Assembly (NCBI GenBank): GCA_052388135.1
Contig: JBQTIM010000069.1
Span: 4,290 to 68,289, forward strand
Direction of reading: 5' to 3'
DNA: 64,000 bases
DNA from: Elusimicrobiota bacterium
GTDB taxonomy: Bacteria > Elusimicrobiota > Elusimicrobia > FEN-1173
Part shown: positions 1,316-60,886 of the stretch, piece by piece
Layout of the letters: each line of letters opens with the position of its first letter
How positions within the stretch are numbered: the stretch's first letter is position 1
Program-made: the position numbers and the translations under genes
The notes under the pieces: model-generated
Told to the model about the DNA's origin: nothing
What the model saw: the letters and a program-made list of their open reading frames with translations, nothing else
The model's database searches: none

Positions 1316-4300
1316 TTGGCGGGAACCGCCAAGGTTTTTGGACGCATAGCGTCCGCCGTGGGGAATTTCTTTGGGCGTCTGTTTGGAAGGCCGGCGGGGG
1401 TTGAAGCGAAGCCGGAAACCATTCCGGCGGGCGTCTCTCCGCGGGAGTCGTTGTCGGCCCCGGCCCGAACTCTCACGGCCGAGGCTTCCCGGCCTGTTTA
1501 TGCCGACGGGCGGGTGTATGACCAGGGGCGGTTCTCTTGGGACGGGGAGGCTTGGCGGCTGGAAGGGCGGGGGCGCGCTCTGGAGAGCGGCTTCAACGGC
1601 ATTCGCGCGGAGGACGGCGGACGCCTGCCGGTCATCGTCGAATCGTCGCCGCAGGGAATTCAGGCCATGGGCATGGACTGGGAGGCCCTGGAAGGGCGCC
1701 GCCTTCTGGTTGAAAAACCCACCCGGCTTCCGGGCGCCGGAACCGTGTTCGCGGGTTCCTTCGACGTCAAGAACGGCGGGTTCCAATTTCACGAAGGCAG
1801 CCTTTACCGCTCCGAGGGCGAGCTTCACGCGCGCTTCGTCACGAAACAGAACGGCGAGCTGGCGCACTTCCCCGCCCGCCTGGAGGGCGATTCCTTCAGC
1901 CTCATCCTGACCGAAACCAAGCTGTCCACGGGGCAAACGGTCGCTTTCGCCGGTTCGCCGCTGACCGGCCGCATCCAGGATGGGCGCGCTTCCTTGAACG
2001 CCGGGCCGGCCGCCGCCCGCGTAAACCTTTCCGATAAGTTCGGCCGAAAGGCCCAGGGCGAGGTGCAGGTGTGGCTGGCGGAAGACGGGCTGAAAATGCG
2101 CGGGCTGGTCTCCGGCCAGACGTCCATCCCCGTTTCCCTGGTGTCCGGGTCTCCCCAAGCGGCGGATTCGGCGGCCGCGGGCGCCGCTCCGTCCGACCTT
2201 CCCGCCGGGCGCTACCGCGTCATGGCCGAGAAGGCGGGCCATTACTTCCTCGAAGGGGAAGTGGCCGTGGCCGAAACCGGCCTGGCGCCCTTCAGCGTCG
2301 ACACGCTGTTCCAGATGGCCCGAGGCGTGGGCTATCGCATGGGCGGCGTGGAGTTCCGGCAGGACGACGCCTTGCCGAATCAATTTTTCAAGCTTACGCG
2401 CCGGGTGGGAATCAGGGCGCCGGAAGGCGGCCGGATGAAAGACCTCTCCACCGGCCACGAAACGATTTTCGGCCCGGCCAACGAGCCCCTCTTTTTCATA
2501 AAACCCGATGAGAACGGAAAGAAGACCGTCCGCTCGGTGCAAGGCCAGGTCCTTCCGGCGGGCGTGCAGACCAACGCGCGCGGCGAAAAAGAGCTGGACG
2601 TCATGCTGGGCCCCGCCCGCCTGCAAGTCTTGCTGGAAACCCAAGACGACAAAACCTCCTACGTTTCCGATAGCCGCTGGCACGCCGCCGGCGACACGAC
2701 GGCCGCCCACGACGGAGTCAACGCCGCCGTCGGCGCCATGACCTTCGACGTGGGCCGCGCGCGCAAAGCCGCCGCGAGCCTCTGGAACCGCGCCGCCGAG
2801 GCCCGCGCCCAGGGCCTCTCCTGGAAAGAAACGGCCGACAGCCTCTGGCAAGAAACCAAAGCCGGCGCCCGGCAGATCTGGAACGAGGACATGGCCGGCC
2901 TTCGGCGCACTCAGCGGCTCGCGGGCCTCTATCTTATGCGGAACGGCATCGGCCTCTTCAAGGCCGGGGTCAACTTCTTCGGCACCAAAAGCATTCCCTA
3001 TTTCCAGCCCGTCCCGGTTAACCTCCTCAGGCATGTCCGCTTGAAGGGATCGTCTGAAAGCGTGGTGGACAAAGCCGAAACCTTCCTGGGCGCGGTGCTC
3101 CACGAGGCGGACAAAAAATACGTCGCGGCCAGGGACCAAGGAAACGAGGAAGTCGGCTTCTACTCCCTGGCCGAGCGCAGAGGCCAGTTCACGGCCCCCC
3201 AAATGCTGGCCCGCGGCGTCGGCCTCGGGGCGGAACAGTTGGGTCAGGGCTTTTTAACCTCTTTCTTCGGCGAAGCCCTTGAGGAATACCGCGGTATGAA
3301 TTTAGACGAGGCGGTTCTTAAAGAAATCAACATCGGTTGGGGCGGAATGAAGGAGTTGGCCAAGGGCGCCTTCACCAATTCCTACAAACAGGCCCCGACC
3401 GTGGTGGAAGCCACCAGGCAGGTCACCACATCCGTCGGCGCCATCGGCCTTATGGCCGTGGTCCCCGGTCGCGGTCTCGCGCGCGGATATCGCGCCGCCT
3501 CCCGCGTCACGGGAATCAGGCGCGTTGCCAGCGGGCTCAAAACCATGGCCGCGGACTCCGTACTCGGCGCGGTTGACATGGTCCTACCTCTCCCCATAGG
3601 CGTGGACGCCGGCGACATGGTCCGGGGCGTCGCGGGCGAATACCGGGCCGGCCGGGTCCGCGAAAGCCTGGGGTTGGGAACCAAAGACAACATCCAAGTG
3701 CTCACCCGGGACGGCCGCTACGTTTACCTGCGCGTCATGGGCGACGACGGCGCCTCCCTGCCGTCCTTGGCGCGCCTGGAGAACCTGGCCCAGCGAGCCG
3801 CCGAGAAGAATTTCGTGCTGGACTTGGAAATCGCCGGCGGCGAATCCGTGGCCCGGCAGCTTGAGGCGCGTCCGGAATACATGGCCGCCCTCAGCCGGGA
3901 AGGCCTGGCCCGCGTCGGCGATTACACCAACGGCCTGAAAAGCGGCGCCGTCAACCTGCGGTCCGCCGCCGTGGCGGAAGAGATGCGCTTCCGCTCTTTG
4001 AGCCTCAAAAAGGAAACTCAATTTCGCCTGGTCGATTCCGAATTGGCCGCCGGCCGGGCCAGAGAAGCGAAGTTAAAATCACTTGAATCCCAAGGGAATG
4101 TGAGGCAAACCGGTGCCTATCTGGCGGAAGCTAAAAGAAATCTTTCGGGGTGGAAGCGGTGGAAAGTCGGGCTCGCCGAGCTCCGGTGGCGTCGAGCCGA
4201 GCGAAGCCTACAGAATCTTGAGCGACGCGCGCAAAGAATTGAAGGAAGCCTATCAGATCACGCAAGAGACGGCGGCCATCCACAGGGAGCGGGAGTTGCG

Positions 4301-7300
4301 CCTCGCACAGGACTTGAAGGACCTGGAGGAGCAAGGTCAGCGCCAAGCCGAGCTGGCCAGGGACTTGAAGGCTTTGAGGGAACACTTCGAAGAGGAAGGG
4401 CGGAAAGCGCGGCAAGAGAAAGAACAAGCGCGGCAAGAGAAAGAACAAGCGCGGCAAGAGAAGCAGCAGGCGCAGCTAAAGATACAGCGTTACGAAGCCT
4501 TAGAGAAGAAATACAACAAGTGGAAACGCGAAATGGCGCGCTTGAAGGACAGCGATCCCGCTTACAAGACGAAATACGAATCGCTCATGAAGGAGAGACA
4601 AGCGCTCGAGGACGAGCTGAAAGCCTTGGAAGGGAAATAAAAGTTTACGACGGCCGGCTGTCCTGGCTCCAGGAGCGCGCGCGCTACCTCACCGAAGACC
4701 CCGCCGGCCGCCGCGTCTACGAAAGCGCCCTCACCCTCACGCCCGACTTCCGGGGCCTCTCCTCGGCCCGCGCCCGCCGGGGAGCCGGCGACGTTTCCCT
4801 GGACAATTTCCCGCTTTCGCCCGACGCTCCCCATCCTCATTCCGCGTTCCAAACGGTCTGGAAGGAATTCGGCCGCCTGGCCGCGGCCGAACGCGGCTCG
4901 TTCCTGATTCCCGAGCGCGGGATATTAAGCGCATTGAAGGATTTCCTGTCCTCTGAAAAAGGGCAAGTCCCGGGGGCTCCACCCCCGGCCCTGGGTGACT
5001 TTTCCTTTGCTCGTCCAAAGGAAAAGTCACCAAAAGGAAAGGACGCCCCCGGCGGCTTGCGCGGGCTGTTTTGGCGGCGGTCCGACACTCCGGCCCCTCA
5101 ACGGCCCATCGGGGCCATCGGGTCGGACCTCCCTCTCCGCCAAACCAACCCGCTCAGAGCGCCGCAGGGGGCCCCGGACGTCAACGACGCGTTGCCTGTG
5201 GATGGATTTTTTGCCCGGGCAATGCAAAGCCGCCATGCGGAAGCTTTCCTCAAGGGGGAAGGGAATTTTGCAGGGCGTAACGCTTACATTACAAAAGCAT
5301 CCGACTTGGATGGCGCAGAGACACCGATTCAAATCGCCGACCGGCTAAAGCTCACCAAGAAAGTGGGGGAGAGTATCGAGCTTTCCAGAGATGCCGACAC
5401 AGTCATAGTTTTCGGATATGATACGCCGACGCGCGCTCCGCCAGATTTGCGGGTCCCGACTCTCGAGGATGGAAGAAGTTATCCATTCACAACTGGAGGC
5501 GCCGCTACGGGCGGAGGGGCCTCTCAGTGGTTAGTAGGCAATGGATCGGTAATGGATTTGCAAGGAAAGGGATTTCGCGTTAAAGAAGTATATTCTGTCA
5601 ATGAGAGCGGGGTGCGATTAGCGTGGAAAACTGTTGCGAATCCAGACGGGACGTACTCGGTGACGGAGAAGGTTTTAACACCACCGAAGAATTCGAAAGC
5701 TACAATCAGCTCCATAAGCTTCTCGAAACGGTTCATCACATCCCTTTCGGAGCTTTTCTCCTCAAATGCAAAAACTGCCAACAGCTCTGGGTTGATGAAT
5801 CGGCTGGAAAGTCAGACAGTCCCGTCTACCGCAAGATCAGTCAGGACCAAGCAAGACTTAAGTTTCCAAACATTCCCCTGGGTTCATGAAGCCATTTCCG
5901 CAGTAAGCAATGCACAAGGCTCCGGGCTGGTTCCCTTTCGAAGCCCGCTTTCTTCGCTCAAATCCTTCGTGGCCCGGGTGTTCCGAAAGACAGCGGGGGA
6001 GGAAGGCGGCCCCGCGGTTCGCTCCACGGGCGGCGCGGACGGGTTAAGCCTTTATCTTCAGGGATTCTCCAAGGAGCTGGGCGAACACCGGGCGCGGTCC
6101 GGCGGTTCCTCCTCCTCTCAAAGCCTTTCCACCGTTCTCGAGGATTTCGGCCGGCGCTTGGAAGACCTCACCACATCCGAAAGCGCCCCCGCCCGCCCCC
6201 GCAGCGACCTTACGGACCCGAAAAGCCTGGAACTCTATTTAAAAGGTTTCGCCAGCGACATTGAAAAACTAACCAGCGACCAGCAGGGCAAGGCCATGAT
6301 CCCCGGCGACGGACCCATGGACGCGCTCAACGCCTACCTGGCGCGGGCTTTCCGGAAAACGGACATGGGCGAAGGCCCCGCCGCGCCGGGCCTTTCCGCA
6401 TCCTACCTCGGGCAAACGCAGTTTCCGCCTTCCGCCGCTCCCTCTTCGCGTTTCGACCGCTCGTCCAACGGATTCATGACCCACAAAGTCCCTCTGCAGG
6501 AGGGCAACCTGGAAGTGGTCTTGGTGCCGTCCAAATCCGCCTACTCGCCGCTCAGGTCCGACGCCGCGCCCGACGCCTGGGACGCGCCGCCCGTTCCCGG
6601 CCGCGACACCTCTTTCCGGCTGGAAGTGAAGCACGGCCCCGACGGCGACGAGATCGTCCTTTCCCGCCCCGGCAAAGGCCTGGCCAGCCTTGAAGACGCC
6701 GGTATCGGCCGGCCCGTGGGACCCGGCCGCATCCGCGTCCAATCCCGCCTGGAGGCCTTCGAGCTCATCCGAAAACAGGAAAGCCTGTCCAAAAACCAAC
6801 TGAACGGCCTCCTGGCCGACCTCAGCCGCGAGCTGGAAGCTTTGGCCAAGAATGAAGAAGGCAAGCTCGGCGCCGGACCGGACCGATCGAAACCCGGTTT
6901 GTTGAATAATGAGAGCGGCCGCTTATCCACGGACATGCTTTTGGCGCCGGTCTTGGCTCCCTGGAAGGCCGCGAAAAAGATTTTTTGGAAGAGCGGAGAG
7001 GCCCTGGAGAGATGGCTTCCGGAAACATGGCGCGCGGCGGCGGCGGAACGGCGCGTCGGAGCCCAGCTGGACGCCTTGGTGGATTTCCGGCTGGATCTGG
7101 AAAAAGGAGGGATGGGTTTTGAGGAAATCGTATCGCGCTATCATGAAATTGCTGGGAGCCGACTCGCTTTGGACGGCGGAGCGGATGGCGGAGCTCTATC
7201 GGGACGACTACGAGGCGGGTCTTCGCCGGTGGAGGCAACTGGGCCGCGTGGCGGAAGAATATCACGTTGGCTGGCTCAACTATCGGAAGCGATTGGAGCG

Positions 7301-8419
7301 CGAAGACGAAAAGGACCGGGAGAAAATCAGGGTGTTCTGGGAGAAGGCCCGGGAGTTGCAGAAAGGATTTCAGGATATAGAACGGAGGGGCGCGCTGAAA
7401 GAGCAGCAGGGCGAGCTCTTAATGAAGCGATACCAAGAGTGGCAGTCCAATACCAACGCGTTGTCCAAGAGCGATCCCGATTACGAGGCCAAAAAGCGGA
7501 TGTTGGAGGAAGAGCTCCGAGCGATCGAGCGGGAAATCACCCGGCTGGAGCAGGAGGACAAGCGGCCGCGGATGCCGCCGCCCCCGTCTACATAGGGAAA
7601 CTTTCTTCCTGGCTGGAAAAACAGCGGTCCGGCGCCGCTCTCGCCCCCGGCTTGGCGGCGGAACTGCGGGCCATGAAAGGCCAAGGCCGCCACGCGGAAG
7701 TTTTCCAGCGCGTCATGGCCGACGTGGTGGAGGACACCGGCTTAAAAATCATGATCCCCGAGCCCGACGCCCGCGGCTTGGCCAACCTGGCCGCCGGCGC
7801 CGCGGCCAAACCCGAATGGATGAAGGCCAAGTCCGACCCGCAAACGCGCTACGTCCTCTGGGATGACGCCAAGGCCCGGCATGGCGAAGCCTATTTGAAA
7901 GAGCACGGCAGCCGGCCCGTGGAGGTGGAAGTGGAGGGCGGACGCCGGATCCAGGCCGCCTCCGATGCCTGGGGCCGCCCCTTGTCCAAGGACGTGGATC
8001 CCACCATGGTGGAAGGCGCGGGCGTCGTGTTCCGCGATCCCGCGAAGATGGGCTATTCCACCCGCATCGCCAACGAAGCCCTGCAATGGGCCAACGCCAA
8101 ACTGAAAGAGCTCGGCTACGGCGAGGTCTTTCCCCACGGCCCCGCCAATCAATTTTCCAGAGCCCAGTCGCTGGCATACCCTCAGATCGCCTACGAGTTG
8201 ACGCCCGAAGGCGCTCTCCGCCGCTACCGCATTTCCGACGAGCGGCAAGCCCAGGCTTTCTTCCACAAAGCCCGCCAGCCCGGCAGCCCCGCCTGGAATT
8301 GGCCCTCGGACCTGTCCGTCCACGCCCGCGAGGCCCTTCCGTCTATCCCCGCGGATTTCGAGAAGGCCGGCCGGCACACAGGCCGCACGTATCCTCCGCG
8401 GGCCGACGCAGGGAATTAG
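1316..8419 (+). CDS. giant uninterrupted ORF (2367 aa) encoding hypothetical protein(s) with no recognisable enzymatic motif. It is probably a composite: two internal stretches (about 4190–4640 and 7143–7595) code better in the +1 frame, the 4972–5177 repeat element sits in-frame, and 5200–5950 is low-GC.
   Basis: There is no stop codon in this frame for 7.1 kb. At the observed base composition about 2% of random codons would be stops, so a chance open frame is excluded. Third-position GC is high over most of the ORF (checked by eye at 1316–4100, 4640–4960 and 7600–8419). It drops to ~40–45% across 4190–4640 and 7150–7595, where the +1 frame shows the G1-A2-S3 coding periodicity. Confidence 0.5.
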   Translation: MAGTAKVFGRIASAVGNFFGRLFGRPAGVEAKPETIPAGVSPRESLSAPARTLTAEASRPVYADGRVYDQGRFSWDGEAWRLEGRGRALESGFNGIRAEDGGRLPVIVESSPQGIQAMGMDWEALEGRRLLVEKPTRLPGAGTVFAGSFDVKNGGFQFHEGSLYRSEGELHARFVTKQNGELAHFPARLEGDSFSLILTETKLSTGQTVAFAGSPLTGRIQDGRASLNAGPAAARVNLSDKFGRKAQGEVQVWLAEDGLKMRGLVSGQTSIPVSLVSGSPQAADSAAAGAAPSDLPAGRYRVMAEKAGHYFLEGEVAVAETGLAPFSVDTLFQMARGVGYRMGGVEFRQDDALPNQFFKLTRRVGIRAPEGGRMKDLSTGHETIFGPANEPLFFIKPDENGKKTVRSVQGQVLPAGVQTNARGEKELDVMLGPARLQVLLETQDDKTSYVSDSRWHAAGDTTAAHDGVNAAVGAMTFDVGRARKAAASLWNRAAEARAQGLSWKETADSLWQETKAGARQIWNEDMAGLRRTQRLAGLYLMRNGIGLFKAGVNFFGTKSIPYFQPVPVNLLRHVRLKGSSESVVDKAETFLGAVLHEADKKYVAARDQGNEEVGFYSLAERRGQFTAPQMLARGVGLGAEQLGQGFLTSFFGEALEEYRGMNLDEAVLKEINIGWGGMKELAKGAFTNSYKQAPTVVEATRQVTTSVGAIGLMAVVPGRGLARGYRAASRVTGIRRVASGLKTMAADSVLGAVDMVLPLPIGVDAGDMVRGVAGEYRAGRVRESLGLGTKDNIQVLTRDGRYVYLRVMGDDGASLPSLARLENLAQRAAEKNFVLDLEIAGGESVARQLEARPEYMAALSREGLARVGDYTNGLKSGAVNLRSAAVAEEMRFRSLSLKKETQFRLVDSELAAGRAREAKLKSLESQGNVRQTGAYLAEAKRNLSGWKRWKVGLAELRWRRAERSLQNLERRAQRIEGSLSDHARDGGHPQGAGVAPRTGLEGPGGARSAPSRAGQGLEGFEGTLRRGRAESAARERTSAARERTSAAREAAGAAKDTALRSLREEIQQVETRNGALEGQRSRLQDEIRIAHEGETSARGRAESLGREIKVYDGRLSWLQERARYLTEDPAGRRVYESALTLTPDFRGLSSARARRGAGDVSLDNFPLSPDAPHPHSAFQTVWKEFGRLAAAERGSFLIPERGILSALKDFLSSEKGQVPGAPPPALGDFSFARPKEKSPKGKDAPGGLRGLFWRRSDTPAPQRPIGAIGSDLPLRQTNPLRAPQGAPDVNDALPVDGFFARAMQSRHAEAFLKGEGNFAGRNAYITKASDLDGAETPIQIADRLKLTKKVGESIELSRDADTVIVFGYDTPTRAPPDLRVPTLEDGRSYPFTTGGAATGGGASQWLVGNGSVMDLQGKGFRVKEVYSVNESGVRLAWKTVANPDGTYSVTEKVLTPPKNSKATISSISFSKRFITSLSELFSSNAKTANSSGLMNRLESQTVPSTARSVRTKQDLSFQTFPWVHEAISAVSNAQGSGLVPFRSPLSSLKSFVARVFRKTAGEEGGPAVRSTGGADGLSLYLQGFSKELGEHRARSGGSSSSQSLSTVLEDFGRRLEDLTTSESAPARPRSDLTDPKSLELYLKGFASDIEKLTSDQQGKAMIPGDGPMDALNAYLARAFRKTDMGEGPAAPGLSASYLGQTQFPPSAAPSSRFDRSSNGFMTHKVPLQEGNLEVVLVPSKSAYSPLRSDAAPDAWDAPPVPGRDTSFRLEVKHGPDGDEIVLSRPGKGLASLEDAGIGRPVGPGRIRVQSRLEAFELIRKQESLSKNQLNGLLADLSRELEALAKNEEGKLGAGPDRSKPGLLNNESGRLSTDMLLAPVLAPWKAAKKIFWKSGEALERWLPETWRAAAAERRVGAQLDALVDFRLDLEKGGMGFEEIVSRYHEIAGSRLALDGGADGGALSGRLRGGSSPVEATGPRGGRISRWLAQLSEAIGARRRKGPGENQGVLGEGPGVAERISGYRTEGRAERAAGRALNEAIPRVAVQYQRVVQERSRLRGQKADVGGRAPSDRAGNHPAGAGGQAAADAAAPVYIGKLSSWLEKQRSGAALAPGLAAELRAMKGQGRHAEVFQRVMADVVEDTGLKIMIPEPDARGLANLAAGAAAKPEWMKAKSDPQTRYVLWDDAKARHGEAYLKEHGSRPVEVEVEGGRRIQAASDAWGRPLSKDVDPTMVEGAGVVFRDPAKMGYSTRIANEALQWANAKLKELGYGEVFPHGPANQFSRAQSLAYPQIAYELTPEGALRRYRISDERQAQAFFHKARQPGSPAWNWPSDLSVHAREALPSIPADFEKAGRHTGRTYPPRADAGN
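4113..4640 (+). CDS. nested +1-frame ORF encoding a K/E/Q/R-rich coiled-coil protein with an ARQEKEQ x3 tandem repeat and the C-terminal motif 'DSDPAYKTKYESLMKERQALEDELKALEGK'. It is either the C-terminal domain of an upstream protein reached by a +1 shift near ~4190, or an independent small gene (GTG start with GAGG 9 nt upstream).
   Basis: 175-aa ORF in the track. GC3 is ~72% in this frame against ~45% for the giant frame over the same bases. Codon position 1 is G-rich and position 2 is A-rich. It is paralogous to the C-terminus of the ORF at 7143–7595 (SDPxY…K(K/E)R..LE(E/D)EL(R/K)A(I/L)E). Confidence 0.45.
   Translation: MPIWRKLKEIFRGGSGGKSGSPSSGGVEPSEAYRILSDARKELKEAYQITQETAAIHRERELRLAQDLKDLEEQGQRQAELARDLKALREHFEEEGRKARQEKEQARQEKEQARQEKQQAQLKIQRYEALEKKYNKWKREMARLKDSDPAYKTKYESLMKERQALEDELKALEGK
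4407..4469 (+). repeat. 3 x 21-bp tandem repeat (gcgcggcaagagaaagaacaa), encoding (ARQEKEQ)3 in the +1-frame coiled-coil ORF
   Basis: Read directly; the third copy is degenerate. Confidence 0.7.
4972..5177. repeat. structured ~207-nt repeat element, copy 1, lying in-frame inside the giant ORF
   Basis: About 80% identical to 29924–30130. It has a 13-bp hairpin with conserved loop GCUYGUCC and two nested long-range helices, and each helix shows compensatory substitutions between the two copies. Confidence 0.6.
7143..7595 (+). CDS. nested +1-frame ORF encoding a coiled-coil protein ('…SKSDPDYEAKKRMLEEELRAIEREITRLEQEDKRPRMPPPPST'), a paralogue of the 4113–4640 product.
   Basis: Internal ATG at 7143 within track ORF 6909..7595. 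GC3 is ~78% in this frame, while the giant frame translates the same bases into G/R/A-rich low-complexity sequence. The ORF upstream of 7143 in this frame is R/W-rich junk. Confidence 0.45.
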   Translation: MKLLGADSLWTAERMAELYRDDYEAGLRRWRQLGRVAEEYHVGWLNYRKRLEREDEKDREKIRVFWEKARELQKGFQDIERRGALKEQQGELLMKRYQEWQSNTNALSKSDPDYEAKKRMLEEELRAIEREITRLEQEDKRPRMPPPPST

Positions 8420-15745: not shown

Positions 15746-15826
15746 CGTCATGCCGGCGAAAGCCGGTATCCAGATGAATGGAAAGTTTCTATAAGCTGGA
15801 CCCCGGCTTTCGCCGGGGTGACGGTT
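15746..15826. repeat. dispersed hairpin repeat, a double module: cgtcaTgccggcgaaagccggTAtcc … ggaCCccggctttcgccggGGtgacg. GNRA-loop stems form a larger inverted structure in the iscU–mnmA spacer.
   Basis: Related modules occur at 30528–30560 and inside the 38551–38680 element. Confidence 0.5.
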
Positions 15827-28316: not shown

Positions 28317-29822
28317 ATGACCGATCCCGCGGAACCCGAACTTTCTCTGCACGGCCTCGCCCTGGGCGGCGACGCCGTGGCCCGGCAAGAGGGGCGCGTG
28401 GTCTTCGTCCCTTACGGCGCGCCCGGCGACCGCGTGCGGACCGCCCGCTGGGAAGCCCGCAAGAATTTCGCCAAGGCTTGGATCTCGTCCATCGTCGAAC
28501 CCGCGCCCGAGCGCGTAGCCGCCCCCTGCCCCTATTTCTTCAAGCCCGGCGCCGCGCCGGAGACCGTCTGCGGCGGCTGCGACTGGCAGCAGTTGGACTA
28601 CGCCGCCCAAGCCCGGGCGAAGCGGCAACTTCTCATCGAGGCTTTCCAGCGCGTGGGCCGCATCGCCAAGCCGCCCGTGGAGGAAACCCTGGCCGCGGAG
28701 TCGCCTTGGCGCTACCGCAACAAGGCCCAAATTCCCTTTGCGCCCGCGGGCGGGCCGGACAACCCGGCCGGCGGCCTGAAAGCCGGTTTCTACGCGCCCG
28801 CCAGCCACAACATCGTCCCCTTCGACGATTGCCTGGTCCAGCCCGAGCCCGCCGTGGCCCTCTTCCGTTCCGTCAAAGAATGGTTCGCCCGCCACCCGGC
28901 GGCCGCCTACGATCAATCCACGGAACAAGGCTGGCTCCGCCACCTGCTGATCCGCGTCGGCGCCGGCGGAAACCTGCTCGCCGCCCTGGTGACCAAGGAC
29001 GAGGGCTTCCCCAACGCCGTGGCCTTCGCCGAATATTTGTCCGCCGCCAACCCGGGCCTGCGCAGTTTGTTTCAAAACGTGAACCCCAAGCCGGGCAGCG
29101 TGGTGCTGGGACCCCAGTGGCGGCACCTGTGGGGGAAACGGTATTTGGAGGAAACTCTCCTGGGCCTGCGCTTCCGGCTGTCCCCCGGAACTTTTTTCCA
29201 GGTGAACCGCGAGATGGCGGAGAAGCTTTATCAAAAAGTCGCGGAGTTCGCCGACCTGAAGCTCGAGGACCACGCCCTGGAGCTTTACGCGGGCGTGGGC
29301 GCCATCGCCCAACTCCTGGCGCGCAAGGCCAAATACGTTTGGGCCGTGGAAGACAACGCCCAGGCCGTGGAGGACGCCATCGAAAGCGCCAAGGAGAACG
29401 GCGTTTCCAACGTGCGCTTCTACCAGGGCCGCTGCGAGGACGTGCTGACCCGCGGCCGCTTCAGCCGGGGCGTGGACGACGTGCTGGGCGCCGTGGTGCT
29501 GGATCCGCCCCGCGCCGGCTGCGAACAATCGGTTCTGAAGGCCGTCATGCGCCTGGCCCCGGCGAAAATCGTTTACGTGTCCTGCGATCCCGCCACCCTG
29601 GCCCGCGACGCGCGCTACCTGTCCACCGGCGGCTACCTCCTGCGCCGCAGCGTTCCCGTGGACCTGTTTCCCCAGACCGCCCACGTGGAAAGCGTTTCCC
29701 TGTTCATGCCTTCCGGCGCGCCGCTCTCCGTTCCGCCCCCAGCGCCGCGCCCCCCGCAAAAAAATTTCCGCCCCGGCGCCCGGGATAAAAACCGCCCCTG
29801 GCGAGCCCTGCGGAAAAAGTAG
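28317..29822 (+). CDS. rlmD: 23S rRNA (uracil-C5)-methyltransferase RlmD/RumA family (TRAM domain, Fe-S Cys cluster, SAM MTase)
   Basis: N-terminal TRAM, 'CPYFFKPGAAPETVCGGCDWQ' Cys cluster, SAM motif 'LELYAGVGAI', 'VLDPPRAG', catalytic 'YVSCDPATLARD'. The ~40-aa basic C-terminal tail is unusual. Confidence 0.8.
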   Translation: MTDPAEPELSLHGLALGGDAVARQEGRVVFVPYGAPGDRVRTARWEARKNFAKAWISSIVEPAPERVAAPCPYFFKPGAAPETVCGGCDWQQLDYAAQARAKRQLLIEAFQRVGRIAKPPVEETLAAESPWRYRNKAQIPFAPAGGPDNPAGGLKAGFYAPASHNIVPFDDCLVQPEPAVALFRSVKEWFARHPAAAYDQSTEQGWLRHLLIRVGAGGNLLAALVTKDEGFPNAVAFAEYLSAANPGLRSLFQNVNPKPGSVVLGPQWRHLWGKRYLEETLLGLRFRLSPGTFFQVNREMAEKLYQKVAEFADLKLEDHALELYAGVGAIAQLLARKAKYVWAVEDNAQAVEDAIESAKENGVSNVRFYQGRCEDVLTRGRFSRGVDDVLGAVVLDPPRAGCEQSVLKAVMRLAPAKIVYVSCDPATLARDARYLSTGGYLLRRSVPVDLFPQTAHVESVSLFMPSGAPLSVPPPAPRPPQKNFRPGARDKNRPWRALRKK

Positions 29823-29923
29823 TTTAATTTAGATGTTGTGGCAGCCCCGCCAGGCCGCCGGGAATCCCCGACGGCCGTTTCGGTGTTTTGTGCGGGTTTA
29901 ATTGAGGGCAACGACCACATCGA

Positions 29924-30130
29924 AGGGGCTCCACCCCTTCACCCGGCCATACTTTCTTTTTGCTTGTCCAAAAAGAAAGTATGGAGAAAGAAAAAGGACA
30001 CCCCGGTGGCCTGCGCGCGCCGTTTTCGCGGCGGCCCGACATTCCGGCCCCTCAACAGCCCATCGGGGCCATCAGGTCGGGCCTCCCGCTTCCGCGAAAA
30101 CGGCGTGCTCGAACCGCCACAGGGGCCCGA
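29924..30130. repeat. structured ~207-nt repeat element, copy 2, intergenic between rlmD and an AT-rich islet
   Basis: See copy 1. The P1 stem reads auacuuucuuuuu/aaaaagaaaguau here versus ugacuuuuccuuug/caaaggaaaaguca in copy 1. P2 reads cgccguuuucgcgg/ccgcgaaaacggcg versus ggcuguuuuggcgg/ccgccaaaacagcc. P3 reads ggcccgac/gucgggcc versus gguccgac/gucggacc. Confidence 0.6.
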
Positions 30131-30169
30131 AAGGCTTAGATTTGGACAATACAGCCGAATAATTCAAAA

Positions 30170-30553
30170 ATGAAAACTTTAAAAATAATCCTATTCCTTT
30201 TCATTCTCTTCGCAAGCGCATTCCTTGTTTTAGGATATGCCCTTACCCATGTGTTCATTGAAAAATATCCTTTATACATTTTTAGTGCTGTAGGCGCCTT
30301 TATGTCTGCTTTGGCTACTTCTTGTTTGGCTGTAATCGGATGGTTTGTAAGCAAAATTATAGGACGCTTTAATCGAGGATATGATGCTTTAGTTAAAAGC
30401 CAACCATTACAAAACGAATATCAATTAATGATTTCTGATAACGCGGCACTATTGGGAAAGTATGGCTGGGTCCAGGGGTGGAGCCCCTGGAAAACAAAAC
30501 TGAATTCTAAAACTTACTCCACCAGCTCTGGATACCGGCTTTCGCCGGTATGA
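30170..30553 (+). CDS. small hypothetical membrane protein (two TM helices) in an AT-rich (~38% GC) islet
   Basis: 127-aa ORF. Low-GC codon usage unlike the rest of the window. Its 3' end overlaps one arm of the dispersed hairpin element. Confidence 0.4.
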   Translation: MKTLKIILFLFILFASAFLVLGYALTHVFIEKYPLYIFSAVGAFMSALATSCLAVIGWFVSKIIGRFNRGYDALVKSQPLQNEYQLMISDNAALLGKYGWVQGWSPWKTKLNSKTYSTSSGYRLSPV

Positions 30554-30620
30554 CGGTCTATCGACCCGACAAAAAAGCGGTGAGATCCTTCGCGTTGCTC
30601 AGGATGACACGCAAATTTAA

Positions 30621-33600
30621 ATGAACCAACTTCAAACACAAACATCCAACGTCCTCCGCGTGAGCGGCCTCCCCGGCGGCGCCGAAGCCTGGTGGCTCTG
30701 GCGGGAGCGGGAAAATCTGGGGCGCGTCCTGGCGCTGACGCGGTCCGACGAGCGGGCCCAGGAGCTGGCGGAGGATTTCGAGGCGCTGGAGCGCTGGCAA
30801 GACCCGGGTTCGCCCGGCCGCGCGGCCTATTTTCCCGAGGAGGAGCCCGACCAGCAGGTGGCGGCGCTTTCCCGCTGGCTGCTGGGCTGGCCGGCGGGAG
30901 AGCTCACGTCGGCGCAGGCCGGCCGCCGGGAAACGGACGTCCCCTTGTTGGCGGCCGCCTGGCCCCTGGCCAAAGAGAGCCTGCCCGCGCCGGAGGAGTT
31001 CCGCCGGGCGCACCGCGACCTGCGCGTGGGGGAGCGTCTGGACCGCGGAGAATTGATCGCCCATCTGGCGCGCGCGGGCTACAGCCGCGTGGACGCCGTG
31101 GAGCAAAGCGGGGAGATGGCCGTGCGCGGCGAGGTCCTGGACCTGTGGTCGCCGGGCTGGGAGGTGCCCCTGCGCGCCCTTTGGCCCTTCGACCGCATCG
31201 AGTCCCTGCGCAAAATAGATTTGTCCACCCAGCGCTCGACGGACGCGGTGGACGCGGCCACGGTCCGCCCCGCGTCCCTGTCGGGTCCGTGGGCGGCGGG
31301 ACGCGCGACGCTCATGGATTATTTGGGCGGCGGCACGCTCTTCGCCTCCAACCTGCCCGAGGAGGGGCGTCCGGCGCGGGAGGGGAAAACCGTTTTGCGC
31401 GTGGAGCTGGGCGCCGCCGACCGGGAGGAGAAATTTTTGCCGCCGCCGGCCGCGCCGGGCCCGGCGGCCGCCGCGTTCTTCGCCGCCGAAATCAAGAAAT
31501 GGATGGAAGCCGGCTGGACGGCCGCGATCTTCTGCCACAACCCCGGCGAGCAGGAGCGCCTGGAGGAAATCCTCCTGGAGCAGGACCGGTCCCTGTCCGC
31601 CTTTTTCGAGGCCCGCCCGTCCGCCGGCCCCGACGGACGGGAGGCGCCCGCCCGCCGGCTGGACTTCCCCATCGGCAACCTCAACCGCGGATTTTTGGAT
31701 CCGGAAAACAAGCGGGCCGTGCTCTGCAACGCCCAGATTTTCGGCCGCGCGCGGCGGCGCCTCCGCCTGCCCAAGTTCATCGGCGGCAAGTCCCTGGCCG
31801 GCGTCTCGGACCTGGCCAAGGGCGATTACGTGGTGCACGAGCAGTTCGGCGTGGGCCGCTACACCGGCCTGCGCCGCGTGAAAGCCGCCGGTGTGGAGGC
31901 GGATTACCTCACGCTGGAATACAAGGGCGGCGACCGCGTGCGGGTGCCTCTCTTCGAGTTCAAGCAGGTGCAGAAGTTCGTGGGCGCCGAAGGGAAAAAG
32001 CCCAAGCTGTCCTCCCTGGACACGGCGGCGTGGGAGCGCGCCAAGGAGAAAGTGAAGGAGGAGGTGGCCGCCCTGGCGCGGGACCTGCTGGCGCGGGCCG
32101 CCAAGCGCGCCGCCTTGGCGGGCACGGCTTTCCCGCCGGATTCCCACATGGAAAAAGAGTTCGGCGATTCCTTCCTCTATGAGCTGACGCCGGACCAGGC
32201 CCGGGCCATCCGCGAGGTGAAGGCCGACATGGTGTCGCCCCGTCCCATGGACCGGCTGGTCTGCGGCGACGTGGGCTACGGCAAGACCGAGGTGGCCATG
32301 CGGGCGGCGTTCAAGGCCGCGTCGGCGGGCCGCCAGGTGGCGGTGCTGGTGCCCACCACCATTCTGGCGGAGCAGCACGGCCGCAACTTCCGCGAGCGGT
32401 TCGCCGACTACCCCATTTCCGTGGCGGTGCTGTCGCGCTTTTCCGCGCCGGCGGAGCAAAAGCGCATCGTGGCGGACCTGCGCCGCGGCGTGCTGGACAT
32501 CGTGGTGGGGACGCACCGCCTGCTCTCGCCCGACGTGGCGTTCAAGAACCTGGGCCTCATCATCGTGGACGAGGAGCACCGCTTCGGCGTGAAGCAGAAG
32601 GAGCGCCTGGCCGCCTTCCGCGACGTGGTGGACGTTCTGGCCCTGTCGGCCACGCCCATCCCGCGCACGCTGGGGTCCGCTCTCGGCGGCCTGAAGGCCA
32701 TGTCCCTCATCGAAAGCCCGCCCGAGGGCCGCCTGCCCATCGCCACCCACGTGGGCCCCTTCGACGAAGGCGTCGTGGCCGCGGCGCTGGAGCACGAGCT
32801 TCAGCGGGGCGGCCAGGTGTTTTACGTGCACAACCGGGTGGGCTCCCTGGACTCCCGCCGCCAGTGGCTGGAAGGCCTGCTGAAGGCGCGGGGCCTCCAG
32901 GCCAAGATCGGCGCCGCCCACGGACAGATGACCGGCGCCCAGCTGGAAAAAATCATGTGGGACTTTCTGCACAAGAAGCACGACATCCTGCTTTCCACCA
33001 GCATCATCGAGTCCGGCCTGGACATCCCGTCGGTGAACACGCTGGTGGTGGAGGAAGCGGAGGACTTCGGCCTCTCCCAGCTTTATCAACTGAGGGGCCG
33101 CGTGGGCCGCGAGCGGCAGAAGGCCTATTGCTATCTTTTCCACTCGGCCCGCACGCTGAGCGAAGACGCGGAAAAACGCCTGGGAGCCCTGCGCGAGTTC
33201 GCTTCCCTCGGCGCGGGGTTCAACTTGGCCCTGCGGGACTTGGAGATCCGCGGCGCCGGCAACCTTTTGGGCCCCCAACAGCACGGGTTCGTCAACGCGG
33301 TGGGCATCGCCCTCTACGGCCGGCTGCTTTCCGACGAGATCCGCCGCCAGAGGGACGGCGCCCCGGCCGACGACGCCGGCGCCGAGCCCGCCCTGGAGCT
33401 GCCCGTTTCCGCCTACCTGCCGGAAGATTACATGCCGTCGGAGGGGGACCGGGTGGCGTTTTACAAGCGGCTGTTGGACGCGCCGGCCTCCGGGCTCGAC
33501 GCCCTCCGCGCCGAATTGGAGGACCGCTGCGGACGCCTGCCCGCCCCCGCCGCCGCCCTTTTCGAGGTGGCCGAACTGCGCCACGCGGCGAAAAAGAAAA

Positions 33601-33812
33601 AAGCCGCGCGGGTGTCGCTCGTCCGCGACGGCCTGGAGGTCCATTTCGAGAACAACGTCTCGTTTTCCCCGGCGACGCTGGAAAACCTCGTCAAGACCCA
33701 CGGCCCCGCCTTCTCGTTCCTGCCGGGCCCGCCCTTCGGCATGCGCTGGGAGCCGGCTCCGCCCGAGCCTCTGCTGGCGTGGGTCAAAAATTTCTTGTCA
33801 ACCCTCGATTGA
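30621..33812 (+). CDS. mfd: transcription-repair coupling factor
   Basis: 1063 aa. UvrB-homology N-terminus, DEEH helicase motifs ('IIVDEEHRFGV', Walker A 'GDVGYGKTEVA'), TRG motif region and C-terminal domain. Confidence 0.9.
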   Translation: MNQLQTQTSNVLRVSGLPGGAEAWWLWRERENLGRVLALTRSDERAQELAEDFEALERWQDPGSPGRAAYFPEEEPDQQVAALSRWLLGWPAGELTSAQAGRRETDVPLLAAAWPLAKESLPAPEEFRRAHRDLRVGERLDRGELIAHLARAGYSRVDAVEQSGEMAVRGEVLDLWSPGWEVPLRALWPFDRIESLRKIDLSTQRSTDAVDAATVRPASLSGPWAAGRATLMDYLGGGTLFASNLPEEGRPAREGKTVLRVELGAADREEKFLPPPAAPGPAAAAFFAAEIKKWMEAGWTAAIFCHNPGEQERLEEILLEQDRSLSAFFEARPSAGPDGREAPARRLDFPIGNLNRGFLDPENKRAVLCNAQIFGRARRRLRLPKFIGGKSLAGVSDLAKGDYVVHEQFGVGRYTGLRRVKAAGVEADYLTLEYKGGDRVRVPLFEFKQVQKFVGAEGKKPKLSSLDTAAWERAKEKVKEEVAALARDLLARAAKRAALAGTAFPPDSHMEKEFGDSFLYELTPDQARAIREVKADMVSPRPMDRLVCGDVGYGKTEVAMRAAFKAASAGRQVAVLVPTTILAEQHGRNFRERFADYPISVAVLSRFSAPAEQKRIVADLRRGVLDIVVGTHRLLSPDVAFKNLGLIIVDEEHRFGVKQKERLAAFRDVVDVLALSATPIPRTLGSALGGLKAMSLIESPPEGRLPIATHVGPFDEGVVAAALEHELQRGGQVFYVHNRVGSLDSRRQWLEGLLKARGLQAKIGAAHGQMTGAQLEKIMWDFLHKKHDILLSTSIIESGLDIPSVNTLVVEEAEDFGLSQLYQLRGRVGRERQKAYCYLFHSARTLSEDAEKRLGALREFASLGAGFNLALRDLEIRGAGNLLGPQQHGFVNAVGIALYGRLLSDEIRRQRDGAPADDAGAEPALELPVSAYLPEDYMPSEGDRVAFYKRLLDAPASGLDALRAELEDRCGRLPAPAAALFEVAELRHAAKKKKAARVSLVRDGLEVHFENNVSFSPATLENLVKTHGPAFSFLPGPPFGMRWEPAPPEPLLAWVKNFLSTLD

Positions 33813-38550: not shown

Positions 38551-38680
38551 AATGCGGTTCAATTAATGTGTGTCACCCCGGCGAAAGCCGGGGCCCAGGC
38601 AGTAAAACTGGTTTTTAAGCAACTATTTAACGCCCTGGATACCGGCTTCCGCCGGTAAGACGGCTTAATTGAACTGCATT
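38551..38680. mobile_element. MITE-like element with imperfect terminal inverted repeats (aatgcggttcaattaa / ttaattgaactgcatt), two GNRA-loop hairpin modules inside, and a 12-bp direct repeat gcggctaaaacc on both flanks (38539–38550 and 38681–38692)
   Basis: Inverted and direct repeats read directly from the sequence. The internal modules match the hairpin repeats at 15746–15826 and 30528–30560. Confidence 0.5.
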
Positions 38681-43738: not shown

Positions 43739-43844
43739 CGGCGTGAATTGTGAACAGTGAATGGTGAATAGAAAAATCAAAACATCGGCTTGGCTCCGGC
43801 TTTTGGACTTTCCCGTTCACTATTCACGATTCACCATTCACGCC
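43739..43844. repeat. inverted pair of GTGAAT-type heptamer arrays (about 32 nt each) separated by ~42 nt, in the frr–uppS spacer
   Basis: Arm 1 is ggcgtgaattgtgaacagtgaatggtgaatag. Arm 2 is cgttcactattcacgattcaccattcacgcc, whose reverse complement is ggcgtgaatggtgaatcgtgaatagtgaacg. Confidence 0.55.
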
Positions 43845-55235: not shown

Positions 55236-55334
55236 GCGGCCGAGCCGGGCCTTGAAATCCGGCCGGAGCGGACTTAAAATTATCGGGAGATATTCTTGCG
55301 GGCGTTGAGGCGATTTACCATAATGGGGGCGGTT

Positions 55335-57032
55335 ATGAAAAAGAGCTTAACGCTTGTCGCGCTGGGGTTCTTCTTGGCCGCGCCGTCCCTCCGGGCGGCG
55401 GAGTTGAAATCCGTGAGGGGCTCAGCGCAGGTGCAGCGCGCCGGCGCCCAATCCTGGGCGGCCGCCAAGTCCGGTTCCCGCGTGAAAGACGGCGACACCG
55501 TCAAGACCGGCCCCGGCTCCCAGACCGACATCCTGCTTCCCCAGGGCCACCGCCTTCTGGTGCGCGAGCGCACCACTTTAAAAATAGATTCCTCCAACCC
55601 CGACGACATGCGTCTTTCCCTGGCCGCCGGCCGCGTGCGCGCCTTCGTCGCCAAACTCAGAAAGCGCAACAAATTCGAGATGCGCACCCCCGTGGCCGTG
55701 GCGTCGGTGCGCGGCACCGTTTTTGAGTTGGAGGTGGGGGAAGACCAGTCCTCGCGGCTGTCCGTCCTGGAAGGAAGCGTCAACTACCGCGACTTGGCCG
55801 GCCTGGGAAGCGACGTTTTGGTTCTTCAGGGCAACAGTGTGCTCATTGAGCCCGGCGCCGCGCCGCGCGCGCCCGAGCCGCTGCCCGCCGACATGAGCGA
55901 AGGTCTCATGCCCGACCGGGAAGACCTCCAGGCCCGGTTCGATCTCAAGGCCGAGGTCGCCCGCGAGACGGGCCTGCAGGCCTTCAAGGACTACTTCCAG
56001 ACCGACGCCGCCCAGGAGATGAAGACCGCCCAATACCAGGAAGGCAAGACGCTCATCGACGCCTTCGGCCACCGCGTCCGCCTGGAGGAATACATCACCC
56101 GCCCCGCGCCCGAGCAATTTTCCTTCGTGGCCCTCAACACGCGCGAGGACCGCTTCGACTTCACCCGCTTCGACCTCTACGCCGCCAAGCCCCTGCCCGA
56201 GGACCTGGGCTCCGTCAACCTGTTTCGCCAGCCCGGCTCCGGCCCCATGGACAACTGGGCCGTCAAGACCCACCGCCTGTCCTCCAACGGCGGCGATTAC
56301 TACCGCGAATGGCAGGACGGCGGCGCGCCCGTGCCAATGACGGGAACCGACGGGCCTTACAAGCAGGTGGTCTTCAACGACTGGTTCGTGGAGGTTCGTG
56401 GCGCCGGCAGCGAGCCCACGCTCCTTTCCCACTGGCAGCCCCACCCCGATTTCAAGAGCGGTCTCAATCCCGATGTGAACGCAACGCGCGACAAGAACGA
56501 TAGGGATCTGGACGGCAGCCAGGACATCCCCAGCGGCTACGAGGACTTTCTGTCCGGCGGTGCCGGCACCGTGGGCGACGACCGGCCCATAGACTTGGCT
56601 GGATTCAGCGCCGCCGACCGCCTGAAGGCCTTCGACATGCCCGCCGTGGCTTCCGCCTACGCCCTCAGCGAGGGCTACCGGCGCGAAAGCGTGGCTGTCT
56701 TGGACGGATTGACGCTGGCGGAAATCAGGGCCCGCTTCCCGGACGGCAACGACCGGGTCCGCTTCATCCTCCACAGCACGGAGTTCGGCAACCAAAGCGT
56801 CTACAAGCGGGCCGAAGTTACCGGCGGCTCCGACATCACGGTGCGCAACAACACCTACTACATTTCCGACGAGGGCCGGCGCCTCAACGCCGGGCAGGCC
56901 TCGACCATCGGTTCGCGCCTGGACGGCTTGAACCTCCAGGACGTGTTCACCTCGCCCACTCTGATGGGCGGCCGCAAAATAGACGTCGTCATCAGCCCCG
57001 GCATTTTCCGCCGGGCCAACCTCCTCGACTAG
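55335..57032 (+). CDS. secreted FecR-domain protein with a long conserved C-terminal region of unknown function (paralogue 1)
   Basis: Signal peptide. FecR-like 'SVRGSAQVQRAGAQSWAAAKSGSRVKDGDTVKTGPGSQ…RTPVAVASVRGTVFELEV'. About 60% identity with the next ORF along the whole length. Confidence 0.6.
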   Translation: MKKSLTLVALGFFLAAPSLRAAELKSVRGSAQVQRAGAQSWAAAKSGSRVKDGDTVKTGPGSQTDILLPQGHRLLVRERTTLKIDSSNPDDMRLSLAAGRVRAFVAKLRKRNKFEMRTPVAVASVRGTVFELEVGEDQSSRLSVLEGSVNYRDLAGLGSDVLVLQGNSVLIEPGAAPRAPEPLPADMSEGLMPDREDLQARFDLKAEVARETGLQAFKDYFQTDAAQEMKTAQYQEGKTLIDAFGHRVRLEEYITRPAPEQFSFVALNTREDRFDFTRFDLYAAKPLPEDLGSVNLFRQPGSGPMDNWAVKTHRLSSNGGDYYREWQDGGAPVPMTGTDGPYKQVVFNDWFVEVRGAGSEPTLLSHWQPHPDFKSGLNPDVNATRDKNDRDLDGSQDIPSGYEDFLSGGAGTVGDDRPIDLAGFSAADRLKAFDMPAVASAYALSEGYRRESVAVLDGLTLAEIRARFPDGNDRVRFILHSTEFGNQSVYKRAEVTGGSDITVRNNTYYISDEGRRLNAGQASTIGSRLDGLNLQDVFTSPTLMGGRKIDVVISPGIFRRANLLD

Positions 57033-60792: not shown

Positions 60793-60871
60793 CGGTGAAT
60801 AGGAAGAACCAAAGCATGCGAACAGTTGCTTTCGCCGTTCCCCTTCACCATTCACGATTCACCATTCACGC
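60772..60871. repeat. inverted pair of GTGAAT-type heptamer arrays in the rimP–nusA spacer. Arm 1 overlaps the last rimP codons.
   Basis: Arm 1 is ggcgtgaacagcgaatcgtgacggtgaatagg. Arm 2 is ccccttcaccattcacgattcaccattcacgcc. Confidence 0.55.
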
Positions 60872-60886
60872 CGTTTAAAGGAAATT

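Follow-up and report, generated by a model that had tools for sequence, protein, structure and literature searches.

A structured bacterial repeat with a predicted pseudoknot and third strand, probably the arm of a cassette-flanking element, in an Elusimicrobiota contig

Introduction

Repeats interspersed in bacterial genomes are normally simple hairpins that are restricted to one lineage. The REP/REPIN, ERIC, Correia and RPE families are hairpin-forming intergenic repeats with compensatory change, of which RPE also occurs inside open reading frames (ORFs) and REPIN as inverted doublets, and each of them is a simple hairpin confined to a genus or a family. The repeat described here resembles these families but spans phyla, and its covariation extends to a pseudoknot and to a third strand; no RAYT-like gene was seen near its copies. 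It was found in a stretch of 64,000 nucleotides (nt) from an Elusimicrobiota bacterium (assembly GCA_052388135.1, contig JBQTIM010000069.1, positions 4,290 to 68,289 of the forward strand), which is called the window below, has a guanine-plus-cytosine (GC) content of 65% and contains two full copies of the repeat, A and B, as well as an inverted and truncated one, B'. The same 50-nt core is present in Elusimicrobia, Proteobacteria, Nitrospirota, Patescibacteria, Bacteroidota and other groups. With a probability that we put at about 70%, the element is an arm of a widespread, probably mobile, cassette-flanking structured repeat of the non-autonomous type.

Two further groups of described systems come close to the core of this repeat. 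The H-type pseudoknots of telomerase RNA, SAM-II/SAM-V and preQ1-II have the strand order of its complement, a U/C-rich loop 1 in the major groove and the triples U.A-U and C+.G-C, and the run of 8-9 consecutive triples predicted here would be comparable to that of the MALAT1/ENE triple helix. Unlike these RNAs, the present family is multi-copy, occurs as inverted pairs and has no fixed gene, and its predicted fold is known from covariation. To our knowledge, three-way covariation of a stem, a loop partner and a third strand has so far been found only in a few riboswitches, in telomerase RNA and in eukaryotic or viral stability elements. Intrastrand triplex motifs (ITxF), TMECO/BoxC among them, likewise consist of pyrimidine, purine and mirror-purine blocks and are present in many copies at variable loci (Hoyne et al. 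2000; Holder et al. 2015, PMC4666352). By definition their blocks have 6-15 nt and their connecting loops 1-6 nt; bacteria have many such motifs, which have been shown to fold in vitro and to mark loci that were rearranged (Holder et al. 2015, PMC4666352). The element is a demonstrable member of none of the classes of miniature inverted-repeat transposable elements (MITEs), REP/ERIC/RPE repeats, triplex motifs or triple-helix RNAs.

Results and Discussion

The copies in the window and their helices

The first-pass annotation, made from the letters of the window alone, had placed a structured repeat at 4972-5177 inside a giant ORF and a second copy at 29924-30130, and had regarded it as a selected RNA structure or a structured mobile element. 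This was right in spirit; the repeat is discrete and its helices are compensated. Both stretches are present and homologous, an exact apical 30-mer occurring twice in the window where 0 occurrences are expected; the MAFFT alignment of the two intervals gives 75% identity over ungapped columns and 73% over all columns in place of the estimated 80% or so. The finding is confirmed as real and is more interesting than first stated, for other reasons: its structure is strongly supported and its in-frame aspect is weak. Overlooked had been the copy B', the pseudoknot between the loop of helix P1 and a GGACR box, and the mirror relation between the 3' arm of P1 and a purine tract.

A covariance model built from the window copies finds A and B as the only full copies in the window (Table 1). 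The limits of homology are slightly wider than first described, and on the 5' side they add a 7-bp GC hairpin, H0, in which three pairs, the outer three, are changed on both sides between A and B. The inverted copy B' starts 320 nt after the end of B. It has an exact H0 13-mer on the - strand (30475-30487) with likewise compensated outer pairs, and a weak covariance-model match lies at 30430-30492.

The consensus fold of A and B has 65 pairs. Helix pairs that differ between the copies number 19; 14 are changed on both sides and still paired, as had been claimed for three helices, two are one-sided but compatible, and three are unpaired in A. Among the single helices, P3 and the apical hairpin proved to be as first drawn. 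P1 (H1 below) is indeed a compensated hairpin, of 15-16 bp and not 13. P2 is perfect in B, but in A its 3' arm reads ccgccaaaccaacc and had been misquoted as ccgccaaaacagcc, and a C.A and a U.C are left unpaired. Both copies are stable far beyond dinucleotide shuffles, with z = -5.9 (A) and -8.6 (B) on the + strand and -6.3 (A) and -5.4 (B) on the - strand, the energy models used handling neither pseudoknots nor triples.

A near-identical copy B is present on a metagenome contig (L001), where one G-U pair of the closing stem H2 has become A-U. At positions 152-160 of that contig (window 29929-29937) the H0 sequence GGGGCTCCACCCC reads GGGGTTTGGGGGG and the hairpin is destroyed; the G-rich run may have been misassembled or misread here, or the variant may be real.

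A family that spans phyla

Searched with an exact 25-mer of the apical hairpin, the genome, metagenome and viral collections gave no match, and hence the apical part is lineage-specific and it is the H1 core that is conserved. A metagenome scan with a pattern that joins both conserved loops led to a contig (L005) with a full copy at 135 bits and an inverted partial copy 230 nt away. In an Elusimicrobia relative (L003) a copy is cut off by the contig end directly upstream of mfd. Because these copies keep the H1 loop and the GACRCCCC box, both are taken as the conserved parts, and a scan of one genome per species was made with the pattern TTTGCTYGTCCAAA N18-30 GACRCCCC. More than 118 further loci are among the matches listed, where roughly 6 are estimated to be expected by chance, and the covariance model confirms 104 + 26 = 130 matches in the scanned loci. 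One locus (L004) was rejected as a chance match to the pattern, having no covariance-model match.

Among the matches listed, the hosts belong to at least ten phyla or groups. They comprise Gammaproteobacteria (Rhodanobacter, Dyella, Dokdonella, Shewanella, Kangiella, Methylomonas and Alcanivorax), Betaproteobacteria (Methylotenera), Desulfuromonadales, Thermodesulfobacteriota, Nitrospirota, Elusimicrobia, Omnitrophota, Patescibacteria, Babeliales and Bacteroidota. There are several copies per genome, with at least nine loci in one metagenome-assembled genome (MAG) of Rhodanobacter. For at least 15 matches the contig ends within about 150 nt, as is expected of a repeat that breaks assemblies. 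No match was obtained by blastn in plasmids, phages or E. coli, and the core pattern was not found in viral contigs.

Long copies of 215-245 nt from distant phyla have a common layout of H0, H1, a purine linker, GACRCCCC and a long closing stem, in which CCCC..GCCGC pairs with GCGGC..AGGGG and the internal-loop sequences CCUGCGC / UGCUCGG are conserved. The interior varies: Elusimicrobia have one simple hairpin there, and Gammaproteobacteria a three-way junction whose hairpins carry CAUCCWUG loops. Further copies could have been found to break the helices first proposed; in 34 copies aligned to the model, 93.8% of the cells are paired and 61 of the 65 pairs show change on both sides, a result seen in 0/500 shuffles, and slid controls give 41-51% pairing. 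The family is a widespread, non-coding structured repeat of about 215-245 nt that occurs in multiple phyla.

The core: a pseudoknot and a mirror strand

In about 100 cores listed, the 8-nt loop of H1, GCUYGUCC, covaries with a box about 25 nt downstream. The loop UGUCC goes with GGACA, CGUCC with GGACG, UGGCC with GGCCA, UGCCC with GGGCA, UUGCC with GGCAA and UGCUC with GAGCA. The last four loop variants lie outside the selection exerted by the scan pattern, and wherever the pattern left the choice of Y and R free the complementary combination was found every time. A MAFFT alignment of 60 distinct cores was used to assess both helices. The four inner pairs of the pseudoknot are paired in 60/60 cores (0/500 shuffles as high), alternating as UA 50 / CG 9 / GC 1 and UA 47 / CG 7 / GC 6, and four of the five pairs of this helix show double-sided changes. 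The upper nine pairs of H1 are 100% paired, eight of them with changes on both sides, and slid controls on the same cores give 44-64% pairing.

The second feature of the core is the purine linker that follows H1. Read 3' to 5', it is the same as the H1 3' arm read from the loop over 8-9 positions. In the family cores this mirror identity is 0.87-1.0 at positions 1-8, and it averages 0.812 over positions 1-10, compared with 0.614 +/- 0.014 after linkers are exchanged between sequences. At least 12 purine patterns occur in 34 haplotypes, each with its own matching linker. At positions 4-7 A/A and G/G are dominant with at most one A/G mismatch per position, and a T in the H1 arm is accompanied by C in the linker (G.U-A on the complement) in 3/3 such haplotypes. 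Copy A has the pairs CGUCC/GGACG and the mirror AAAGGAAAA/AAAAGGAAA, copy B the pairs UGUCC/GGACA and the mirror AAAAAGAAAG/GAAAGAAAAA; the two copies thus differ in a compensating manner under both the pseudoknot and the mirror rule, with 8-10 matching mirror positions. Since a mirror repeat cannot arise by duplication or inversion, the relation is attributed to selection. A linker placed in the groove of H1, where it reads every base pair, would be expected to show this relation, and the core seems to fold into a pseudoknotted hairpin with a third strand in its groove.

Table 1. Positions of the repeat copies, their parts, the adjoining segments and the frame calls in the window
Feature	Position	Strand	Description
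Copy A	4968-5182		full module H0-H1-linker-H2 as written on the + strand; covariance model 221 bits, alignment to B, folds
H0 of A	4970-4988		7-bp GC hairpin CCGGGGG / CUCCA / CCCCCGG
H1 of A (P1 of the first-pass annotation)	4994-5031		5' arm 4994-5008, loop GCUCGUCC 5009-5016, 3' arm 5017-5031
Purine linker of A	5032-5040		AAAAGGAAA; read 3' to 5' the same as H1 3' arm 5017-5025; proposed third strand
GGACG of A	5041-5045		pairs with loop bases 5012-5016 (CGUCC), giving the pseudoknot
H2 of A	5045-5175		long nested closing stem holding P2, P3 and the apical hairpin
P2 in A	5070-5077 with 5137-5144		plus extensions
P3 in A	5079-5086 with 5122-5129		
Apical hairpin in A	5092-5097 with 5111-5116		
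Copy B	29920-30135		full module, intergenic; covariance model 265 bits
Core of B	29947-30000		H1 29947-29984, loop GCUUGUCC 29962-29969
Mirror linker of B	29985-29995		10/10 mirror positions match
GGACA of B	29996-30000		pairs with 29965-29969
B'	30456-30492	-	inverted truncated copy: H0 and beginning of H1 5' arm
Low-GC segment between B and B'	30136-30455	+	320 nt, about 36% GC
Lower-GC segment right after copy A	5192-5950	+	46-55% GC, open in the frame of the giant ORF
Frame call	1321-4080		best frame that of the giant ORF
Frame call	4081-4680		best frame another
Frame call	4561-4920		best frame that of the giant ORF
Frame call	4800-5640		element and start of lower-GC segment; no clear frame
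Frame call	6001-7080		best frame that of the giant ORF
Frame call	7081-7560		best frame another
Frame call	7561-8400		best frame that of the giant ORF

Inverted pairs and their cargo

Convergent inverted pairs of arms are present at at least 24 loci, measuring 460-760 nt from outer end to outer end, and B and B' form one such pair in the window. Some pairs enclose genes of atypical GC content and others are empty. Methylomonas subterranea (L118) carries five copies within 8 kb in a urease operon, two pairs of which enclose ORFs of 33-40% GC, encoding a DUF3825 protein and a 579-aa protein without assignment. One of these cargo ORFs starts 35 nt past the end of the arm; the spacing is the same at copy B, where a 127-aa membrane-like ORF (30170-30553) begins in the segment between B and B' with its ATG 35 nt past the end of B. 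The window shows a like arrangement, with low-GC DNA between B and B' and a segment of lower GC content next to copy A on its downstream side. Copy A stands at the junction of native high-GC coding sequence with that segment, which has candidate in-frame starts at TTG 5192, GTG 5198 and ATG 5222 and is possibly cargo.

Copy B is flanked by a gene of the tRNA(U5)-methyltransferase family (28317-29822) and, beyond the low-GC ORF, by mfd (30621-33812), the product of which is 100% identical to a protein of an Elusimicrobiota MAG at NCBI and about 65% identical to its next relatives. In the Elusimicrobia relative (L003) the region upstream of mfd contains the intact arm and a second, older remnant with H0 only (77-112), and this remnant aligns with B'. 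For that reason the site upstream of mfd has either been occupied since before the split of the two lineages or is a hot spot, and the presence of arm and remnant together suggests repeated insertion beside existing copies.

In their surroundings (118 loci, 8 kb each) the ORFs that cluster are housekeeping genes only (response regulators, short-chain dehydrogenases, 2-oxoacid dehydrogenase E2/E3, ABC ATPases and leucyl aminopeptidase) or translations of the element itself. In three Xanthomonadales loci (L089, L096, L093) the element separates the genes for E2 and E3 in a 2-oxoacid dehydrogenase operon, and in another locus (L085) E2 and E3 are one uninterrupted ORF. In Methylomonas (L118, L015, L108) the outer side of each arm has GTGTCGCTATCGCGACGG and then a T-run. 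This makes a terminator-like hairpin, which faces inward and belongs to the inverted repeat as well.

The closest likeness in arrangement is to MITEs and mobile insertion cassettes. Like these, the family is short, non-coding and multi-copy, breaks assemblies and leaves truncated remnants, and its arms form inverted pairs that are empty or enclose GC-atypical genes. Unlike them, it has arms of 215-245 nt that are individually folded and a core found across at least ten phyla, and in the 8 kb sampled at each locus no parent insertion sequence, transposase or consistent target-site duplication was found for the family. The possibility had been raised in the first-pass annotation that palindromic arms of a MITE or insertion sequence would trivially explain the pairing. 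In other genomes the element is one arm of larger inverted-repeat units, which bears this out in part, but palindromy does not trivially account for the helices within each arm, the pseudoknot and the mirror strand, and known MITE ends have no counterpart of the last two.

Several other classes were considered and rejected. Group II introns, HEARO/omega RNAs and retron RNAs gave no Rfam match, and in a Pfam scan the flanking ORFs had no reverse transcriptase, IscB or TnpB. The template and variable repeats of a diversity-generating retroelement do not fit, as the differences between A and B involve all four bases, follow base pairing and are not adenine-specific, and the copies are 25 kb apart. 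An integron attC site is a single imperfect hairpin of 57-141 nt with RYYYAAC / GTTRRRY sites, found in same-orientation arrays beside intI; by inspection, the present arms have a different anatomy, with three domains in about 215 nt and no core sites at the ends, and form inverted pairs elsewhere. No Rfam 15 family was found at the gathering threshold in the whole window, matches around copy B being at chance level (E up to 10), and no tRNA or tmRNA was found.

Which strand, and RNA or DNA

Either strand satisfies the structural relations described above, but it makes a difference which of them is read. In 23/23 long copies the written strand has more C than G, and the complement folds better in 22/23 of them, with 107 G-U pairs vs 72. 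Read as written, the core would have the purine-motif triples A.A-U and G.G-C, whereas on the complement they would be U.A-U and C+.G-C with G opposite U-A inversions. The classical pyrimidine-motif triplex code is T.AT, C+.GC and G.TA. The topology of the complement would be that of an H-type pseudoknot, with UGUCC/GGACA as stem 1, H1 as stem 2, a loop 1 that follows the major groove of H1, and a loop 3 of 3 nt; the two crossing stems are found by covariation, and the third strand follows the U/A-U, C/G-C code.

The only Rfam hit in the family, TwoAYGGAY (RF01731), points to the same strand. It covers the interior of a Kangiella pair with 47.3 bits against a threshold of 43, on the complement strand, and the CAUCCWUG loops of the gammaproteobacterial arms read AYGGAY on the complement. 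The window copies have neither such hairpins nor a match to this family, and RF01731 is without the H1/pseudoknot core. A sub-threshold Bacillaceae-1-like match reads the CAUCCWUG-type hairpins on the other strand. From the strand asymmetry, the triple code, the topology and the TwoAYGGAY match, the selected strand is probably the complement of the written one, i.e. the - strand of the window for A and B, and the strand folded in the first pass would be the inactive one. We lean slightly towards a module that acts as RNA; action as folded DNA is the less favoured possibility of the two, although a substantial one.

If RNA is the acting form, the element might be a bona fide non-coding RNA gene or a cis-acting RNA domain (a stabiliser or regulatory leader), comparable to MALAT1/ENE or to a ligand- or protein-binding pseudoknot and multi-copy because it is useful. 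This would agree with the unpaired nucleotides, pseudoknot and closing stem with its internal-loop sequences that are kept across phyla, with the intrinsic strand asymmetry and the additional G-U pairs on one strand, and with a third strand that fits the U.A-U / C+.G-C / G.U-A rules. Moreover, in two unrelated genomes the distance from the arm end to the start codon of the cargo gene is a constant 35 nt, and the remnant upstream of mfd has been kept in two lineages with only 65% identity in Mfd. An RNA with a function of its own at each site is nevertheless unlikely, considering that there are many copies per genome in both orientations, as empty inverted pairs, truncated or at contig ends, that one copy is inside a long ORF, that no neighbour gene is consistent, and that neither a promoter or terminator signal nor such an Rfam family was found for it.

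A DNA-level element would be an intrastrand triplex and cruciform repeat that promotes rearrangement or the capture of foreign DNA, with neither an RNA nor a dedicated transposase. The order of pyrimidine, purine and mirror-purine blocks, which A, B and the family all display, is the design of intrastrand DNA triplexes, and the abundance of such motifs in bacteria, their folding in vitro and their presence at rearranged loci speak for it (PMC4666352). Pair centres in Rhodanobacteraceae (Rhodanobacter among them; L096, L051, L011, L047) carry CCCTCCCC-N7-GGGGAGGG, resembling TMECO/BoxC of E. coli. Copies adjoin GC-atypical DNA and no associated protein was found, both of which would suit this explanation as well. 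The dimensions differ, however: the first loop has 8 nt and the second connector, composed of 5-6 nt of lower stem and 0-2 nt more, has 6-7 nt, outside the defining 1-6 nt, and the family is A/U-rich and not G/C-rich, with longer loops, a different sequence and a larger fold. A triplex tract would need neither the pseudoknot nor the conserved letters of the loop, nor a closing stem of 120 nt whose internal loops are conserved. A G-U excess on one strand is more typical of RNA, and unless a specific partner recognises the element, its sequence identity across phyla is difficult to account for. We regard this explanation as doubtful.

A structured arm of a mobile cassette

In the preferred reading, in which the element is an arm of a non-autonomous, cassette-flanking repeat, selection would preserve the fold of one strand, consisting of H0, an H1 of 15-16 bp made of a pyrimidine arm and a purine arm, the pseudoknot, the third strand and H2. 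The pseudoknot would have 4-5 bp between the H1 loop and GGACR, and the connecting strand would lie in the major groove of H1 as a third strand, tracking the stem over 8-9 positions. Our preferred guess is that this compact, nuclease-resistant fold may form the end by which the element and its transcripts are recognised or protected. Within the window, 320 nt of foreign-looking DNA of 36% GC would be bracketed by B and the truncated B'.

Several points weigh against this reading. Around the copies no transposase, integrase or other recurrent protein was found in the 118 loci, no consistent target-site duplication was seen and the outer boundaries vary between lineages; mobility is probable, on circumstantial support. 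Copy A has no inverted partner in the window. The triple helix is predicted from covariation, and it would have a connector of 1-2 nt from the base of H1 to the third strand. Promoter and terminator scans at the element were at chance level with no clear signal. Many members come from related Xanthomonadales, so that the counts overstate the independent events, and the alignment of 34 copies was fitted by the covariance model and leans towards structure. As far as could be checked, the core fold has not been described before for bacterial repeats, neither the core sequence nor triplex/pseudoknot repeats having a description in the literature searched or in Rfam 15; the one related precedent in that literature is the work on intrastrand DNA triplexes (PMC4666352), and an earlier description under another name is possible.

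A further step, which we offer as tentative and give less than even odds, would be to see in the family a new phylum-spanning folded class with the longest covarying run of triples in a bacterial element, serving a cassette mobility that is read from structure or a MALAT1-like protection of transcript ends. If the fold is real, it would provide a natural, sequence-variable model of a helix of 8-9 triples. It may also explain foreign genes bracketed by structured arms in housekeeping operons, and it would draw attention to one cause of broken assemblies and spurious long ORFs in high-GC genomes. Carriers in culture include Rhodanobacter sp. OK091, Dyella sp. KULCS107, Shewanella indica KJW27 and Methylomonas subterranea SURF-2; several such strains have the element in many copies, which makes the claim directly testable.

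The long open reading frame around copy A

Copy A is located inside a frame (1316-8419) that is open for 2367 codons (7.1 kb) and runs through the element. It had been stressed that the copy does not interrupt this frame, with a length of 207 nt or 69 codons. The interval 4972-5177 has 206 nt. Stops are rare in the element in any frame, with 0-1 in each of the six frames of copy A, while copy B is stop-free in all three + frames and has a single stop in each - frame; of all 207-nt windows in the 65% GC sequence, 56% have two or more open + frames. Frame-shifting indels separate copy A from the intergenic copy B, and the argument from the frame therefore carries little weight. Spurious read-through ORFs occur in other genomes, such as a ureB ORF lengthened by 130 codons and a cluster of 77 ORFs that are translations of the element. 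The element's own sequence is without coding constraint, and given the constraints that this sequence has of its own, the open frame of copy A is incidental.

The alternative would be a tolerated in-frame insertion, similar to RPE, that adds about 70 residues to a real giant protein. Frames were called from position-specific GC and from a log-odds profile of codon usage, for which the confident genes in the window served as training set (Table 1). About 75% of the frame has its codon usage, on both sides of the element, and the five stop-free coding stretches in this same frame, which cannot be separate genes, argue that the long frame is not accidental; it stays open even across the two segments where codon usage favours another frame (P of about 0.006-0.04 for each). 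Such an insertion is nevertheless distinctly unlikely, given that there is no coding signal in any frame across 4800-5640, that the near absence of stops in the element makes an open frame expected, and that substitutions between A and B follow base pairing and not codons. In addition, neither half of the giant ORF has a detectable homologue or Pfam domain, and the ORF is apparently absent among the deposited proteins of the MAG. An exact-protein search with the window genes matched only one metagenome contig of 1.3 kb.

The gene structure of 1316-8419 could be one of overlapping frames, frameshifting or a mosaic gene. The two other-frame segments (4113-4640 and 6909-7595) have coiled-coil-like translations with the alternative frame ending in a stop, and the two peptides have a C-terminal motif in common (SDPAYKTKYESLMKE... 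and SDPDYEAKKRMLEEE...). A purine-rich part of the giant ORF has three tandem 21-nt units of AAGCGCGGCAAGAGAAAGAAC at 4405-4482. On either side of copy A, the peptide of 4760-4951 weakly resembles that of 5825-5974 (33% identity over 64 residues, E = 0.003 in a two-sequence comparison), which could be a repeated protein motif or a duplicated junction around an inserted block.

Other features of the window

Upstream of the giant ORF, ORF 5-1027 has sub-threshold matches to alpha/beta-hydrolases (DUF900, DUF676 and the Tle3 effector) and is followed by ORF 813-1295, which has a signal-peptide-like start. The locus 5-1295 may be a region of the toxin/immunity type, and the low-GC stretch 5192-5690 together with a small Cys-containing ORF (5623-5889) has a similar look.

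Three smaller repeats were also noticed. A hairpin-forming one, CTGGATACCGGCTTYCGCCGGTAWGACGG, has three copies (15793-15824, 30525-30556 and 38632-38663), the second of which is directly after B' and before mfd. A 43-nt repeat that contains TTCACGATTCACCATTCACGCC is found at 43802-43844 and 60830-60872 with 88% identity, in intergenic-looking low-GC spots. Finally, a direct repeat of 267 nt with 76% identity (55965-56231 and 57792-58058) is located in the adjacent ORFs 55296-57032 and 57036-58793, which are probably tandem paralogues.

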